Below are positions 1,726-39,473 of a stretch of DNA of 64,000 bases, one piece after another. The notes beneath the pieces were generated by a model, which saw only the letters and a list, made by a program, of their open reading frames with translations, was not told the DNA's origin and did no database searches. Numbering within the stretch: the stretch's first letter is position 1; each line of letters starts with the position of its first letter. Made by a program: the position numbers and the translations under genes. Source of the stretch: a virus (Duplodnaviria; Caudoviricetes); the IMG/VR virus record IMGVR_UViG_3300010261_000001, positions 6,378 to 70,377 of that record. One strand, 5' to 3'.

Positions 1726-4086
1726 TTAACTCATGCTTAATCTTTTTTTCTTTAATTTGTAAAAATATCTTTCTAGCATAGGTTCTAGTTGCTTTTCTAC
1801 CTCTTTTTTTATATCTGCTATTTCCTTTGGGTTAGATGTTTGAGGATAAATATTAATTGTAGGGGCAAATGTATCAGATTGTACTGTATTTGAATTACTG
1901 CTTGTTGTGTTATTTAGTATTTTTTTAGTTTCATTAGCTGTTTTAACCTTGTATCCTTGAGGAAGATTTCTTGTTTGTTTGCCTATTACAAGTTCTGGTC
2001 CTCTTTCTGCTAATTCTGTAAGGCCACCTTTCCAATAGTTAGTGCCTGTTGCATTACGTCCTATTCGTCCTTCTTTATATCTATTTGTTGACTTTTGGAA
2101 CTTTTCTTTTATTGTTGCTATTTTAGGTTGTAGTTTGGTTTTATTCCATTCCTTAAGTTTTTCTATGCCACTTTTTATTCCTTCTCCAACCTTTTTAAAG
2201 GCACCTTTAATTTTATCTAGATTTTTAATTATTAATACACCAGCTACTATTGCTCCGGCTATTGCTAATCCCCATGGGGTAAATAATCCTCCTAACAATG
2301 GTTTGACAAAACCTGCAAACTTGGCTATACCACCACCTAAAAAGCCAAACATTTTAAATAGATTACTTCCAAGCTTTATAGCTCCACTTATGCCTTTTAG
2401 GAACACTTTGCCTACCATTAACACTGGTCCTATAGCTGCTGCTAATGCACCTATCTTTACTATTGTTTCCTGTGTAGCTGGACTTAGTTCTGTAAACTTC
2501 TTTGTCCAATCTCTAACTGTCTCTGCTATATCTCTTACTGTAGGTTTTAAGACGTCACCGACTGTTATAGCTGCACCTTCTAAAGCACTCTTCAATGACC
2601 TAAAAGCACCACCTATATTGTCTTCGTTTACATCTGCCATTCTTTGTGCTTCACCTGTGTATTCTCTTGTAGCTTGAGTAAGCTTTGCATAATCTTCATT
2701 ACTTGCATTTATAATCGACAACATGCCACTCATAGCTTCTTTACCGAATATTGTCGATGCGTATTGTGCTTGCTGTTCTTTAGATAATCCTCTAAACTTA
2801 CTTCTCATATCATCCATTACAGTCTTGAAGGGTTTCATGTTTCCATCTGCATCTGTGATTTTTAATCCTAATTTTTCCATAGCAGTAGCCATGCTATCAG
2901 TTGGTTTTACAAGGTTTGTTATTGCACCTCTTAATGCTGTACCTGCTTTCGAGCCTTTTACACCTGCGTTAGCCATTAAACCTAGTGCTAAAGCCGAATC
3001 CTCTGCTGTATATCCTAGTGAACCAAATAATGGAGCCACATATGAAAATGATTCGCCTAGCATACCAACATTAGTATTAGAGTTCGAACTTGCACTTGCC
3101 AATAGATCTGCGAATTTAGTTGAATCCTTTGCTTGCATTCCAAATGCCGATAAAGCATCCGTTACAATGTCAGATACACCCGCGAGGTCTTCGCCACTTG
3201 CTGCAGCTAATGCCATTACACCTTCTATGCCTGCTAACGATTGTCGTGCATTCCATCCTGCCATTCCCATATAAGTAAAAGCTTCTCCAGCTTCACTAGC
3301 ACTAAATTTTGTGTCACGACCCATCTGTAATGCTTTTGTTCTTAATTGGTCGAATTCTTCTTGACTTGCATTAGTAATACCTCGAACTTGTGACATTGTA
3401 TCGTCAAAACTTGCAGTTGTCTTTATTGCTGCTGCGCCAACGCCGACCATAGGTAATGTAACTCTAGTCGTAAGAGTTTTTCCGACTTGGTCCATCTTGT
3501 CGCCAATTGCATTTATTTTGCTTGTAACATTGTTTACTTTAAAGTTTTTTAACTCTTTATTAAACTCTGCATGTTGAACTCTTAGATCTAAGATGTGGTC
3601 TTCGAGTTTCTGTGCTTCTTTTGAGTTGTCTCCATATTTCCTTTTAGTTTCTTCCAATACAGGGTTAAGCTTTTTAATCTCATTACTAAGTATTTTTGTT
3701 TTTTCTTTTAATACTTGAGATTTTTTACTATTCTTTCTTAATACTATCGCTACTTTGTTTGCAGATAGTTCCCAAAGCTTATGTTGTTTGTTTAGTCTAT
3801 CAATAGACCTTGATGTTGCGTCAGAGCTTTCCTTTATTTTAGATTCTAGTCCCTTAATTTCCATTGTGGCTGTTTTCGACTTTGTCCCTAATTTAGACAA
3901 TCCCTTGGCTGTTTTCTTCGTTGTATCGCCAAATTTAGACGTTGCCATTTCTGTAGTTTTAACATTTGCACCCATTTTGCTAAATCCATCTTTAACTGCA
4001 TCAACTTTGTTGTCAACTTTATTAAGTTCTGGAGTAGCCATATCCCTATATTGAATTTCAACTAAAAGCTCTCTTAATGAATCCAT
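1726..4086 (-). CDS. Tail tape measure protein (TP901-type core)
   Basis: 786 aa; TKFSASEAGEA, GMLGESFSYVAP, GLTELAERGPELV motifs; follows the chaperone gene. Confidence 0.92.
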   Translation of the reverse strand: MDSLRELLVEIQYRDMATPELNKVDNKVDAVKDGFSKMGANVKTTEMATSKFGDTTKKTAKGLSKLGTKSKTATMEIKGLESKIKESSDATSRSIDRLNKQHKLWELSANKVAIVLRKNSKKSQVLKEKTKILSNEIKKLNPVLEETKRKYGDNSKEAQKLEDHILDLRVQHAEFNKELKNFKVNNVTSKINAIGDKMDQVGKTLTTRVTLPMVGVGAAAIKTTASFDDTMSQVRGITNASQEEFDQLRTKALQMGRDTKFSASEAGEAFTYMGMAGWNARQSLAGIEGVMALAAASGEDLAGVSDIVTDALSAFGMQAKDSTKFADLLASASSNSNTNVGMLGESFSYVAPLFGSLGYTAEDSALALGLMANAGVKGSKAGTALRGAITNLVKPTDSMATAMEKLGLKITDADGNMKPFKTVMDDMRSKFRGLSKEQQAQYASTIFGKEAMSGMLSIINASNEDYAKLTQATREYTGEAQRMADVNEDNIGGAFRSLKSALEGAAITVGDVLKPTVRDIAETVRDWTKKFTELSPATQETIVKIGALAAAIGPVLMVGKVFLKGISGAIKLGSNLFKMFGFLGGGIAKFAGFVKPLLGGLFTPWGLAIAGAIVAGVLIIKNLDKIKGAFKKVGEGIKSGIEKLKEWNKTKLQPKIATIKEKFQKSTNRYKEGRIGRNATGTNYWKGGLTELAERGPELVIGKQTRNLPQGYKVKTANETKKILNNTTSSNSNTVQSDTFAPTINIYPQTSNPKEIADIKKEVEKQLEPMLERYFYKLKKKRLSMS

Positions 4087-36659: not shown

Positions 36660-37176
36660 TATTGCCTCCTATACTTCACTTTGTATCCTTAGTATGCTTT
36701 GTAATGCCCCTATTTGTATTTGTATAGCCTTCATACTATCTCTTGCAGCTATATATGTTTCTTTTGCCAAGTCCCTTTCGTATCGTAAGTCTGCTAAATT
36801 CCCTCTTGCTACATCCTCTATAAGTCCAACTGGCATACCTTCATCTCTTAGTTTTATCTTTTCTGCCGCTAATGATACTCTATAATCTCTTTCTTTTTCT
36901 GCCATTACCTTTGCCAGTTTGAATATTTCTTCGCTTGCTTTTTCTAGCCTTTTACTGCCTTGATATAATTCTTTAGTTATGCTTGTAAGTTCCATTTAAT
37001 CACCTATACCTATTCTTCATCTAATGCCTCTATAACTCTTTCTATTGCTATATTCTTTTCTTCAACAAATTTATCAAAGTCACTCTTAGGTTCTTTCAAG
37101 TTCATCATTTTTCTATCTAGATTAACCCACGCTTTCAGTATTGATATAGCCTTGTCAAGTTCCACATTATCCCTCC

Positions 37177-37893
37177 TTAAAACATTGTTGTTTGCCTATC
37201 TTCCCAGTAAAATTTTTCTTCTAATTCCTGTATGCTGTAATCACTTCTGAATTTTCTTCCAAACTGTTTTATGCTTCTAAAGTCATATTCTTTCATCTTT
37301 TGCCAAAGTTCATGATAATCTCTGTATATTACTTTTAGTTCCCCTAATCGTTGTAATGGACATAGATAGCAACTTACTCTGTCTAATTTCTCATACAGTC
37401 CATTCCAATCAAAGCCTTTACTATAGCAATACTCTAAACAGTCTCTTTCTGTCATTCCCCATTCAATTAAAGGATGCTTAATATTTCTTCCATCTTTATT
37501 TTTCTTTGCCCTATGTGATTCATCTAGTGCTATGCCATGATATTCTGTTACTTCTTCATATTTGCTTAGGTACTGACTTATTAATTGCTTTTTAAGTGCT
37601 TGAGTGCACCATCTGTTTCTAAAATCAGGCCATGAGTATCCTTTTTTACCTTTGTTTTTACCTTTCGTTTTCTCATATTCAAACATTAGATATTCAAAGC
37701 TGTACTGACTTTTTAATACTGTTATTTTTCTGCCGACCATCTTCTCGACCTCGGCAATATGGTCGTACATCTCTGGAAATTCTACTCCTGTGTCACCAAA
37801 TATTATTTCATCTATTTGCATATCTTCTTCTAATATTCTTAGTAATAATGCTGTACTGTCTTTGCCACCTGAAAAACTAACTATATGTTTCAC
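37177..37893 (-). CDS. PAPS reductase family (PP-loop) protein
   Basis: KHIVSFSGGKDS, RWCT, RVSCYLCP; GTG start at 37893. Confidence 0.85.
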   Translation of the reverse strand: MKHIVSFSGGKDSTALLLRILEEDMQIDEIIFGDTGVEFPEMYDHIAEVEKMVGRKITVLKSQYSFEYLMFEYEKTKGKNKGKKGYSWPDFRNRWCTQALKKQLISQYLSKYEEVTEYHGIALDESHRAKKNKDGRNIKHPLIEWGMTERDCLEYCYSKGFDWNGLYEKLDRVSCYLCPLQRLGELKVIYRDYHELWQKMKEYDFRSIKQFGRKFRSDYSIQELEEKFYWEDRQTTMF

Positions 37894-38115
37894 CTTTCCA
37901 CCCACTCAAGATATATTTCATCTCGAATAGGTAATTGCAAAGCCTACCCATCCCCTTAGGAACGACCTAAGAGAGCAAGTCATATGCAATTTTGCACTTC
38001 GTTTCTACAGCTAAAACGCCTTTTAATAGGTCGTGAACCTAATTGAATAGACGATATATTCTCGGGCTTGTAACCTGCTTTAGCAGGATTGGAAAGGTAT
38101 CGGTTTGAGTTTCAA
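37887..38115. mobile_element. 222-bp non-coding structured insertion with 6-bp direct repeat
   Basis: GTTTCA at 37887 and 38109; CCTTTCCA/TGGAAAGG inverted repeat; removal restores RBS-TTG AAA CAT. Confidence 0.55.
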
Positions 38116-38116
38116 A

Positions 38117-38479
38117 TTATCCCTCCTTGCTTTTATCTTCTAAACTTAACATTTCTTTATTGTCTTGTAACATTGACAAGCGTTCCTCTCTTTTTTTTCT
38201 GCATATTTCTTCAAGCTGTGCTTCTGTATACTTGTCTGTCCTTTGCTTAAAGTTATGGAAGCCTGTCTTTTTAGCTGTTTTAATTCCTCTTATATCTGCT
38301 ATGGTAGGAGGATATGGACTTTCCATAATATGCTTTTCAGCTGCTATCAGTGCATCTTCTGTTCTTATATCTTTTAATGATTGGTACCATAGCTTAACTG
38401 TTTGTTCATTAACTTCTTTCATGTTTGGATAAGCTACCGACAACATTGCTAGTAACTTGATTACTTCTGGCTTAGTCAA
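38117..38479 (-). CDS. Helicase loader/inhibitor (G39P-like N-terminus)
   Basis: VIKLLAMLSVAYP...PPTIADI; follows replisome organizer. Confidence 0.7.
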   Translation of the reverse strand: MTKPEVIKLLAMLSVAYPNMKEVNEQTVKLWYQSLKDIRTEDALIAAEKHIMESPYPPTIADIRGIKTAKKTGFHNFKQRTDKYTEAQLEEICRKKREERLSMLQDNKEMLSLEDKSKEG

Positions 38480-39473
38480 TCAATCCACCCTCTTCCTCCG
38501 CTAGTGCTTCTTGATACATTTCCTCTAGCTTGGATAAGTTTTTATTCTGCTTAGGTTTTTTCTCTCCAGCCCTTCTAAGTTCTAATGTGTCCCATTGCTT
38601 CCTTAATTTCTGTGGACTTCTGATGTTGCTACACCAGAATGTATCGTTTTGAGCCCATCTAAATAACTCTGCTATTGCTCTTGGAGTTCGCTTGTCCAAT
38701 CTAATCATCCAGTCAATATGCTTGGCCCAGTCTTGCAGGCTTTTGACATCATTTTTTGGAACTCTGCTGTCAGGTTTAACCCTTAACATTTCACTTATCA
38801 TAAATCTTGCTAATGCTATTTCTGTAGAATCTTCTTCAAATTTAAGTTTTATTTCAGTTGACTTTTCATCGTTGCTACTTTGTTGCAACATGTCTTTATC
38901 TTCTTTATCTATATCTTTATCTGTATCTATATCTTTATCTGTATCTGTATCTATCTCTATATCTATATCTGTGTTACTTTTTATTACTTCGTCGTTACCT
39001 TCTGTTACATCAGTGTTACTTTGTAACATTTCTTTATTTTCTTCGCTTTCTAGGGCTTTTTTCTGTCTATGCTTTCTTACTCTCTTAGCCGAATCTGTTT
39101 CAGAACCTATCATATTTTGAGTTTCAATCATAAATAAAGTTCCATCATCCCAAACCTCCATTAAATCTAACTTTGCAAATAAATCTATTGCCACTCTAAC
39201 TGTGTCTATATCTGTTCCTGTAATTGCTGATAACATTTCAGGAGTGTAAGGAATTATATTTCTAAATTTTAATTTGCCTTCTGTGCTAATTGATTTTAAT
39301 AATAGTTTTAAGTAGAAAATTATATAATCTTTTCCGTTTGGCATATTCTCTATAACTTTGACTTCTTCTCTCTCGAAGAAGTTTTCATTTAGTTTTAGCC
39401 AATAGTATCTTTTAGCCAATTTATCACCTACTTTACAATCTCCGCTATTGCTTTTGTTTTCCCAAAGTCCCAC
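38472..39473 (-). CDS. Phage replisome organizer (lytic initiator) with internal ori
   Basis: KRYYWLKLNENFF N-terminus; GTTAC repeats at about 38971-39025; DID repeats. Confidence 0.88.
   Translation of the reverse strand: MGLWENKSNSGDCKVGDKLAKRYYWLKLNENFFEREEVKVIENMPNGKDYIIFYLKLLLKSISTEGKLKFRNIIPYTPEMLSAITGTDIDTVRVAIDLFAKLDLMEVWDDGTLFMIETQNMIGSETDSAKRVRKHRQKKALESEENKEMLQSNTDVTEGNDEVIKSNTDIDIEIDTDTDKDIDTDKDIDKEDKDMLQQSSNDEKSTEIKLKFEEDSTEIALARFMISEMLRVKPDSRVPKNDVKSLQDWAKHIDWMIRLDKRTPRAIAELFRWAQNDTFWCSNIRSPQKLRKQWDTLELRRAGEKKPKQNKNLSKLEEMYQEALAEEEGGLID

Follow-up and report, generated by a model that had tools for sequence, protein, structure and literature searches.

Layout of the locus

The window analysed here is a 64,000-nt stretch of a Caudoviricetes genome (positions 6,378 to 70,377 of the IMG/VR record IMGVR_UViG_3300010261_000001), and the subject of this work is a 222-nt structured element located on its minus strand at the first codons of a PAPS-reductase-like gene. 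All features of the locus are read on this strand. Upstream of the element lies a G39P-like helicase-loader gene (38117-38479, PF11417), whose 3′ end reads AAG GAG GGA TAA with the stop codon at 38119-38117. Downstream lies the gene encoding the 3′-phosphoadenosine-5′-phosphosulfate (PAPS) reductase-like PP-loop protein (37177..37893), which comprises 238 aa from its GUG, begins with MKHIVSFSGGKDS and matches PF01507 with E = 6e-16, in line with the original prediction made from the sequence alone.

The last codons of the G39P-like gene contain a Shine-Dalgarno (SD) sequence, SD1 (AAGGAGGG, 38121..38128), with a calculated duplex energy of -15.0 kcal/mol against a generic Firmicutes anti-SD and a spacing of 5 nt to a TTG codon. 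This strong ribosome-binding site (RBS) is followed by TTG AAA C (38115-38109), by 222 nt, and then by AT ATA GTT AGT TTT TCA GGT GGC AAA GAC AGT, precisely the arrangement that had been described. The hexamer TGAAAC is found at 38114-38109 and again at 37892-37887, with an offset of 222 nt. Deletion of 222 nt joins TTG AAA CAT ATA GTT AGT TTT TCA GGT GGC AAA GAC AGT, which encodes MKHIVSFSGGKDS, so that removal of the insert does restore the start of the gene as claimed. In the sequence as it stands, the TTG opens a leader open reading frame (ORF) of 11 codons, MKLKPIPFQSC (38080..38115), which was likewise anticipated; it starts 1 nt past the stop codon of the G39P-like gene and ends with UAA at 38082-38080.

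The PAPS-reductase-like gene also possesses its own SD sequence, SD2 (GAGUGGGUGG, 37898..37907), the GGUG core of which is located 5 nt ahead of the GUG start at 37893-37891. This site had been judged weak; with -9.3 kcal/mol against the Firmicutes anti-SD and a 5-nt spacing, it is stronger than assumed. Initiation at the GUG yields an MKHIV N-terminus identical to that of the relatives' proteins, and the protein-collection entry for the window's own gene is also a 238-aa protein starting with MKHIV. As the GUG start and a spliced TTG start would both give MKHIV, N-terminal mass spectrometry cannot discriminate between them.

The encoded protein belongs to a large family, with 1537 homologues at E <= 1e-20. 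Alignment of this family revealed four invariant cysteines (C96, C156, C175 and C178) beside the SGGKDS PP-loop. Such a set of four invariant cysteines is a feature of nucleic-acid-thiolating PP-loop enzymes. Judged from these residues, the protein is more likely an Fe-S enzyme for sulfur transfer, similar to DndC or TtcA, than an assimilatory CysH.

Predicted fold of the element and its conservation

Folding of the 222-nt element produced a minimum free energy (MFE) structure of -73.5 kcal/mol with a z score of -4.18, and none of 200 shuffled sequences was equally stable. The element has a G+C content of 41% compared with 33% for the window, a level reached by only 1.6% of 222-nt windows and comparable to that of the tRNA region. 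All of the hairpins listed in the original prediction exist. At the 5′ end, a small hairpin, UUUGA-AAC-UCAAA (38104..38116), is tentatively predicted to contain the TTG start. A long-range helix, H1, is then formed in both the MFE and centroid folds between UACCUUUCC (38091..38099), located in leader codons 6-8, and GGAAAGGUG (37891..37899), which includes the GUG start. The proposed CCTTTCC arm hiding the downstream start corresponds to this helix, in which CCUUUCC from the leader codons is predicted to pair with GGAAAGG-UG.

The leader ORF ends 8 nt beyond the 5′ arm of H1, in H2, a hairpin CCUGC-UAAA-GCAGG (38074..38087) that carries the leader stop codon in its loop. The central domain (37962..38034) is closed by H3, in which ACGACCUA (38034-38027) pairs with UAGGUCGU (37969-37962), and encloses the predicted helices H4 (38013-38018 with 38000-38005) and H5 (37993-37997 with 37984-37988). 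This domain can alternatively fold into two local hairpins of nearly the same energy, the two central conformations being near-isoenergetic at -69.1 and -67.7 kcal/mol. The last helix, H6, is a predicted 14-bp hairpin (37900..37932) whose 3′ arm (37900-37913) contains most of SD2. The predicted unpaired probability is low for both signals of the PAPS-reductase-like gene, at 0.01 for SD2 and 0.10 for the GUG, and rises to 0.17 and 0.43, respectively, if pairing of the leader ORF is prevented in the model.

Relatives of the element are known from public read sets only, namely from three runs referred to as X2, X6 and X8. A 71.8-kb contig of X2 matches 37892-38478, and carries 8 differences over the 222 nt of the element (3.6%) versus 46 over 364 nt of the upstream gene (12.6%; Fisher p = 2e-4). 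The PAPS-reductase gene of X2 is less than 80% identical and too diverged to align, starting with GTG AAA CAA ATA GTA ATG TTT AGT GGT GGA; the element thus occupies the same site ahead of two very different PAPS-reductase alleles. Among the contigs of X8, a wastewater run, one spans 37914-38128 at 91% identity and two more match only the first 46 nt (38115-38070, 43/46 identical). In this two-contig variant the sequence upstream is another one and includes an RBS-like GAAAGGGG of its own, and a G+C-rich hairpin replaces that of the window. X6, from an anaerobic digester, provided a 180-nt contig with the SD2-GUG region and a diverged H6 upstream of it.

Comparison with these relatives points to both translation signals and helices as the conserved parts. 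The leader ORF with an RBS is kept in three lineages, and its sole change in X2 is the synonymous CUC to CUU; the 5′ arm of H1 is invariant in X2 and X8, and SD2 and the GUG are conserved in X2, X6 and X8. The X2 changes at 38001 in H4 and 37994 in H5 convert G-C to G-U and retain the pairs, as does that at 38107 in the 5′ hairpin, to which it lends slight support. A change of G to A at 37903 in H6, common to X2, X6 and X8, converts G-U to A-U. Two-sided changes are also observed: the X8 variant of H2 shows a compensatory C-G to G-C exchange (38083 with 38078) with the UAA kept in the loop, and the upper stem of H6 in X6 consists of another sequence that still pairs, with several two-sided changes. 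In all, pairing survives the substitutions in five helices. Because G-U changes would be mismatches on the opposite strand, it is the sense-strand RNA that is conserved. The X2 changes at 38052 and 37951 break weakly predicted helices, which are therefore not trusted. As far as these comparisons reach, the element has changed less than the adjoining coding sequence and appears to be under purifying selection for its RNA fold.

Proposed translational control from a leader reading frame

The interpretation favoured here, although tentatively, is that of a structured leader of a new type, which probably arose by insertion, masks the start of the PAPS-reductase-like gene and couples its translation to that of the leader ORF. 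In this interpretation, the element would be a lineage-specific, functional mRNA leader that is retained in the mRNA, apparently without splicing, and governs translation of the enzyme. Ribosomes finishing the helicase-loader gene would restart 1 nt further on at the TTG by means of the strong SD1, read its 11 codons and terminate at the UAA exposed in the H2 loop. Translation of the enzyme would begin separately, from the GUG at 37893 and with the help of SD2. In the free RNA, SD2 would be buried in the 3′ arm of H6 and the GUG in H1 against leader codons 6-8, and a ribosome on the leader would melt H1 and expose the GUG start. Enzyme expression would in this way be kept low and made dependent on translation upstream. 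The two near-isoenergetic folds of the multi-helix core H2-H5 may allow it to respond to an additional signal, for instance temperature, a ligand or a protein. A sequence that is spliced out would have no need of a conserved SD2 and GUG, which supports the leader staying in the mRNA. The original prediction had offered an insertion sequence (IS) derivative, RNA-level excision and a translational attenuator as options, of which the attenuator alone gained support, from the masked start and the kept helices, whereas the other two did not.

The RNA is without a known family, and the proposed mechanism is of a known kind. Its closest counterparts are the leader-peptide translational attenuators of the ermC, cat and cmlA type, which likewise have a short leader ORF with its own strong SD, and in which, as predicted here, the SD and start of the regulated gene lie in helices and the masking strand lies inside the leader ORF. 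Unlike these, the element is associated with neither a resistance gene nor a known arrest peptide; its masking helix bridges 190 nt around a core of ~160 nt that contains several helices, compared with four short segments in the known attenuators, and its leader is additionally coupled to an upstream stop codon. A downstream start closed by a distant upstream coding segment and opened by the ribosome is also reminiscent of the phage MS2 coat-replicase and mok-hok fold-back systems. The upstream frame of the element differs in being an 11-codon mini-ORF without evident product function, and a second, local hairpin (H6) covers the SD. Translational OFF riboswitches share a junction closed by a P1-like helix with the start codon in its 3′ strand, as well as two core folds, but the element matches none of the 4227 Rfam families and has no known ligand, and a putatively translated leader ORF crosses the 5′ strand of its closing helix.

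Several points weigh against this interpretation. In the model, H6 remains folded after H1 has been opened, so that the unmasking of SD2 would be incomplete, and the 160-nt core far exceeds the needs of a simple coupling device. The comparison of relatives rests on the difference tables of three runs rather than on full sequences, which makes for thin data, and the X6 relative is a single 180-nt contig with a depth of 3.4 and 30 nt visible. Recent transfer could also explain the high conservation. Leader translation, unmasking, the lack of splicing and the insertion origin are all deduced. If the element were native, its TGAAAC repeat would have to be a coincidence of the 2% kind estimated below.

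If the leader interpretation is correct, the element would define a new conserved RNA family of ~210 nt, in which a mini-ORF that is translated is combined with long-range pairing over a start codon and with a large core able to adopt two folds. It would control a phage PP-loop/Fe-S enzyme that is very common beside phage replication genes, and could thereby indicate when and why such PP-loop enzymes are needed, with the core as a possible binding site for a ligand or protein. It would also illustrate how an insertion at the first codons of a gene can stay harmless without splicing.

Restoration of the reading frame upon removal of the element also brings to mind an unrecognised self-splicing intron, i.e., a very reduced group I-like ribozyme whose excision would rejoin RBS-TTG-AAA-C to AT ATA GTT. 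The order of its helices is indeed group I-like, running from CCUUU through ACGACCUA-UU-AAAAGG, hairpins and UAGGUCGU to a long 3′ hairpin and a G, which would equal a pseudoknot of the P3/P7 kind with a P9-like stem behind it; no change affects the core in X2, and the G+C content is raised. As the strands of CCUUU/AAAGG and ACGACCUA/UAGGUCGU, which stand in group I order, are invariant, there is no covariation to score. The P3-like pairing, at -58.5 versus -69.1 kcal/mol, loses by 10.6 to the 9-bp H1. One register has a U before the 5′ junction and G37893 as the last inserted base, but it is one of 7 possible registers and carries little weight. No guide sequence was found: the 5′ exon can form at most 2-3 bp, either as UU/AA within the UUUGA/UCAAA hairpin or with GAU at 38101. 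U38115 takes part in no U-G wobble, and the X2 change at 38116 removes one of these pairs. P5 is absent, the P4 equivalent is a 5-bp hairpin, and two hairpins occupy the position of P8.

Rfam at E <= 10, run on 801 nt and on 251 nt, returned no family match for the element, including the group I model RF00028, in keeping with the earlier statement that no group I core was found. The matches obtained were noise only: a microRNA model scored 21 bits where its gathering score is 108, and the Na+ riboswitch scored 12 bits where 40.5 would be required. At the gathering score, the whole window yielded no group I intron, only noise and one tRNA. Among the contigs of four runs, no joint that skips the 222 nt was detected, contigs alone leaving rare forms invisible. 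In addition, a 6-nt boundary repeat is not made by introns, the conserved SD2 and in-frame GUG would be superfluous, and there is no other intron in the window.

Like phage group I introns and IStrons (Tourasse et al. 2014, PMC4227781), the element is an ORF-less, G+C-richer structured insert in a conserved phage gene whose frame is restored upon its removal, with a U before the insert, a G at its end and a possible P3/P7-like nested pairing. It differs from them in having no covariance match, guide sequence, U-G wobble, P5 or transposase gene, and in having the 6-nt boundary repeat as well as an SD and start of its own at the 3′ end. RNA-level excision, as once suggested, thus found no positive support in the Rfam searches, the exon pairing or the boundary repeat, and a reduced group I-like intron is improbable. 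That the element represents an intron-like RNA of a new class, which lacks a group I or II core, excises itself and settles with a back-up RBS at the first codons of phage PP-loop genes, is considered slightly more doubtful still.

The compact fold could alternatively belong to a stand-alone stable non-coding RNA that is cut from the operon transcript with its ends joined by H1, serving as a partner or substrate of the enzyme or as an anti-defence decoy. The closing helix around a multi-helix core, the G+C content like that of tRNA genes and the better conservation than that of the neighbours are consistent with such a molecule. The X8 relative, in which the 5′ 46 nt are shared (43/46) and a different peripheral hairpin follows, and the four cysteines by which the enzyme resembles the nucleic-acid-thiolating PP-loop enzymes, also fit this proposal. 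Against it, no promoter or terminator bounds the element, ARAGORN detected no tRNA or tmRNA in the element region, and the Rfam searches provided no likeness to a known RNA. Moreover, the closing helix includes the start codon of the next gene, which indicates a role in cis. With these objections, a stand-alone RNA is no more probable than the reduced intron. A retron non-coding RNA was separately considered in view of the closing helix and rejected, given that the reverse transcriptase family PF00078 is absent from the record.

A 222-nt translational bypass, with ribosomes hopping from the first AAA to the second, was also considered, as H1 would bring the two sites close to each other. The AAA codons match, as in bypass of the T4 gene 60 type, and there is a hairpin at the first and an SD-like tract before the second. 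The codon after take-off is CUC (Leu), however, which is neither rare nor a stop codon, in contrast to the stop codon in gene 60. Take-off at codon 2 would make a nascent peptide impossible, ribosomes would have to skip over four times as far as in the longest known case, and ordinary GUG initiation makes the same protein. Bypass is accordingly barely conceivable here.

Origin of the element and the mosaic region

Evidence that the leader arose by insertion comes from the boundary repeat and from homologues that lack the element. Upstream regions of 19 IMG/VR homologues were read, and most start with (A/G)TG AAA CAT ATA GT right after the RBS. The element was not found in ~100 homologous IMG/VR loci searched with BLAST and nhmmer, nor in ~120 loci searched with blastn-short and nhmmer, nor by BLAST in 50 whole related phage records. 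None of the relatives of the G39P-like gene in IMG/VR has a PAPS-reductase gene downstream; since no phage with the two genes side by side was found, no true empty site is available. The proposed check for empty alleles and further copies has thus produced homologues without the element, but neither an empty site in the same context nor a second copy.

The duplication of TGAAAC, correctly located 222 nt apart in the original prediction, is weaker evidence of insertion than was claimed. The hexamer consists of the TG of any start codon, AAA, which is the commonest second codon (13/89 rough gene starts), and a single C, so that the repeat suggests insertion without proving it. The chance of two unrelated gene starts both carrying TGAAAC is ~2%, and because this is small, insertion is the more likely origin. 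The element probably came in at the gene's first codons, either inserted at the DNA level or acquired by recombination of a cassette. Restoration of the frame upon removal is nearly automatic for any insert between two start codons, and a note of caution follows for similar cases, in which "removal restores reading frame" is a weak argument for an intron or insert.

An origin by insertion need not imply a function, and the element could be a relic of a non-autonomous DNA transposon of the miniature inverted-repeat transposable element (MITE) or palindrome-associated transposable element (PATE) type, or a recombination scar, with a 6-bp duplication and a functionless RNA, preserved merely through the chance re-creation of a start codon. 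The TGAAAC direct repeat exactly at the boundaries, a 9-bp inverted repeat (ACCTTTCCA / TGGAAAGGT), the homologous genes without the element and the mosaic character of this phage region, with a 21-nt direct repeat bracketing a 950-bp unit, are consistent with such a relic. The inverted repeat, however, lies 15 nt inside the left end (counted from TGAAAC) and is terminal on the right only, and the left (5 bp) and right (14 bp) hairpins are unrelated in sequence. The element is present as a single copy in the 70-kb record (~76% complete), although TGAAAC occurs 24 times on that strand, and no copy was found in the 50 related phage records or in three large collections. Genes for reverse transcriptase (PF00078), TnpB (PF07282), Y1 TnpA (PF01797), IS110 transposase (PF01548) and RtcB are absent from the 70-kb record. 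A functionless relic would also not account for conservation above the neighbouring coding sequence with pair-preserving changes. It is an unlikely explanation, while retaining more credit than either the intron or the stand-alone RNA.

Known mobile elements resemble the insert in part. Bacterial MITEs and IS200/IS605-derived PATEs are also small and devoid of an ORF, with hairpins near their ends and a possible 6-bp target duplication. The inverted repeat of the element is non-terminal, its hairpins are unlike each other, and it occurs in one copy, with none in the large collections. Individual candidates were rejected on these grounds: an IS110/IS1111 derivative, as the inverted repeat is subterminal on the left only, PF01548 is absent and there are no further copies; a MITE, as the 6-bp repeat is present but without terminal inverted repeats at both ends and in a single copy; and an IS200/IS605-derived PATE or IStron, as the end hairpins are unlike and PF01797 and PF07282 are absent. 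The earlier suggestion of a non-autonomous IS derivative therefore fell for want of terminal inverted repeats, matching hairpins, a transposase gene and a second copy.

Broader searches for copies were likewise negative. No DNA similar to the element was detected with blastn among GenBank phages or PLSDB plasmids, and exact patterns (two element blocks, the SD2-GUG region, and the start region plus a protein motif) had no match in IMG/VR. Exact 19-21-mers of the element were absent, apart from chance-level matches, from 2.9 million IMG/VR contigs, 185,579 GTDB species genomes and 241 million JGI contigs. The 19-mer scan gave 4 GTDB and 3 JGI matches, near chance (~4 expected for GTDB), all of them unrelated except one, in a Saprospiraceae metagenome-assembled genome.

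This last locus (CAZQSF010000059.1, 7535-7690) contains a small ORF with LKLFKPIPFQSRQVGGYPAG, ending in a terminator and located upstream of an ATP-grasp gene, and it looks like the precursor of a ribosomally synthesized and post-translationally modified peptide. The small ORF and the leader ORF of the element share the exact 21-mer AAACCGATACCTTTCCAATCC, and the 30 nt after it are similar to the end of the G+C-rich variant in X8. Among 200 Saprospiraceae genomes this look-alike showed no conservation, and the small ORF is without protein relatives.

The region around the element is mosaic. A 21-nt direct repeat, AAGGAGGGATAAT GTGGAACT, occurs as a right copy at 37158..37178 and a left copy at 38108-38128, 19/21 identical, and the two copies bracket a 950-bp unit consisting of the leader and the PAPS-reductase gene. 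Its 13-mer AAGGAGGGATAAT is found exactly at only two sites in 64 kb, the second of which (37178-37166) precedes the start of the next gene. The repeat has the appearance of a joint between cassettes, or of a translation-start region that was duplicated.

Among the homologous loci, Rfam found no family in L004, L005, L062, L072 or L093, and the upstream region of L005 is not unusually folded (z = -0.02). In L062, an IMG/VR phage, the PAPS-reductase match spans 1055 nt (1501-2555) for 200 residues, leaving ~450 extra bases, which might encode an additional domain or represent an intervening sequence.

Two other features of the window lie outside the locus. Iteron-like tandem repeats, TCTTTATCTGTATCTATA and variants with a spacing of 12 and 18 nt, are located at 38902-38976 (also 39194-39222) inside the replisome-organiser gene (PF09681), and probably represent the lytic replication origin of the phage. 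Positions ~3040-3360 have the highest G+C content for their size in the window (~45% versus 33%), comparable to that of the tRNA region (18.7-18.9 kb).

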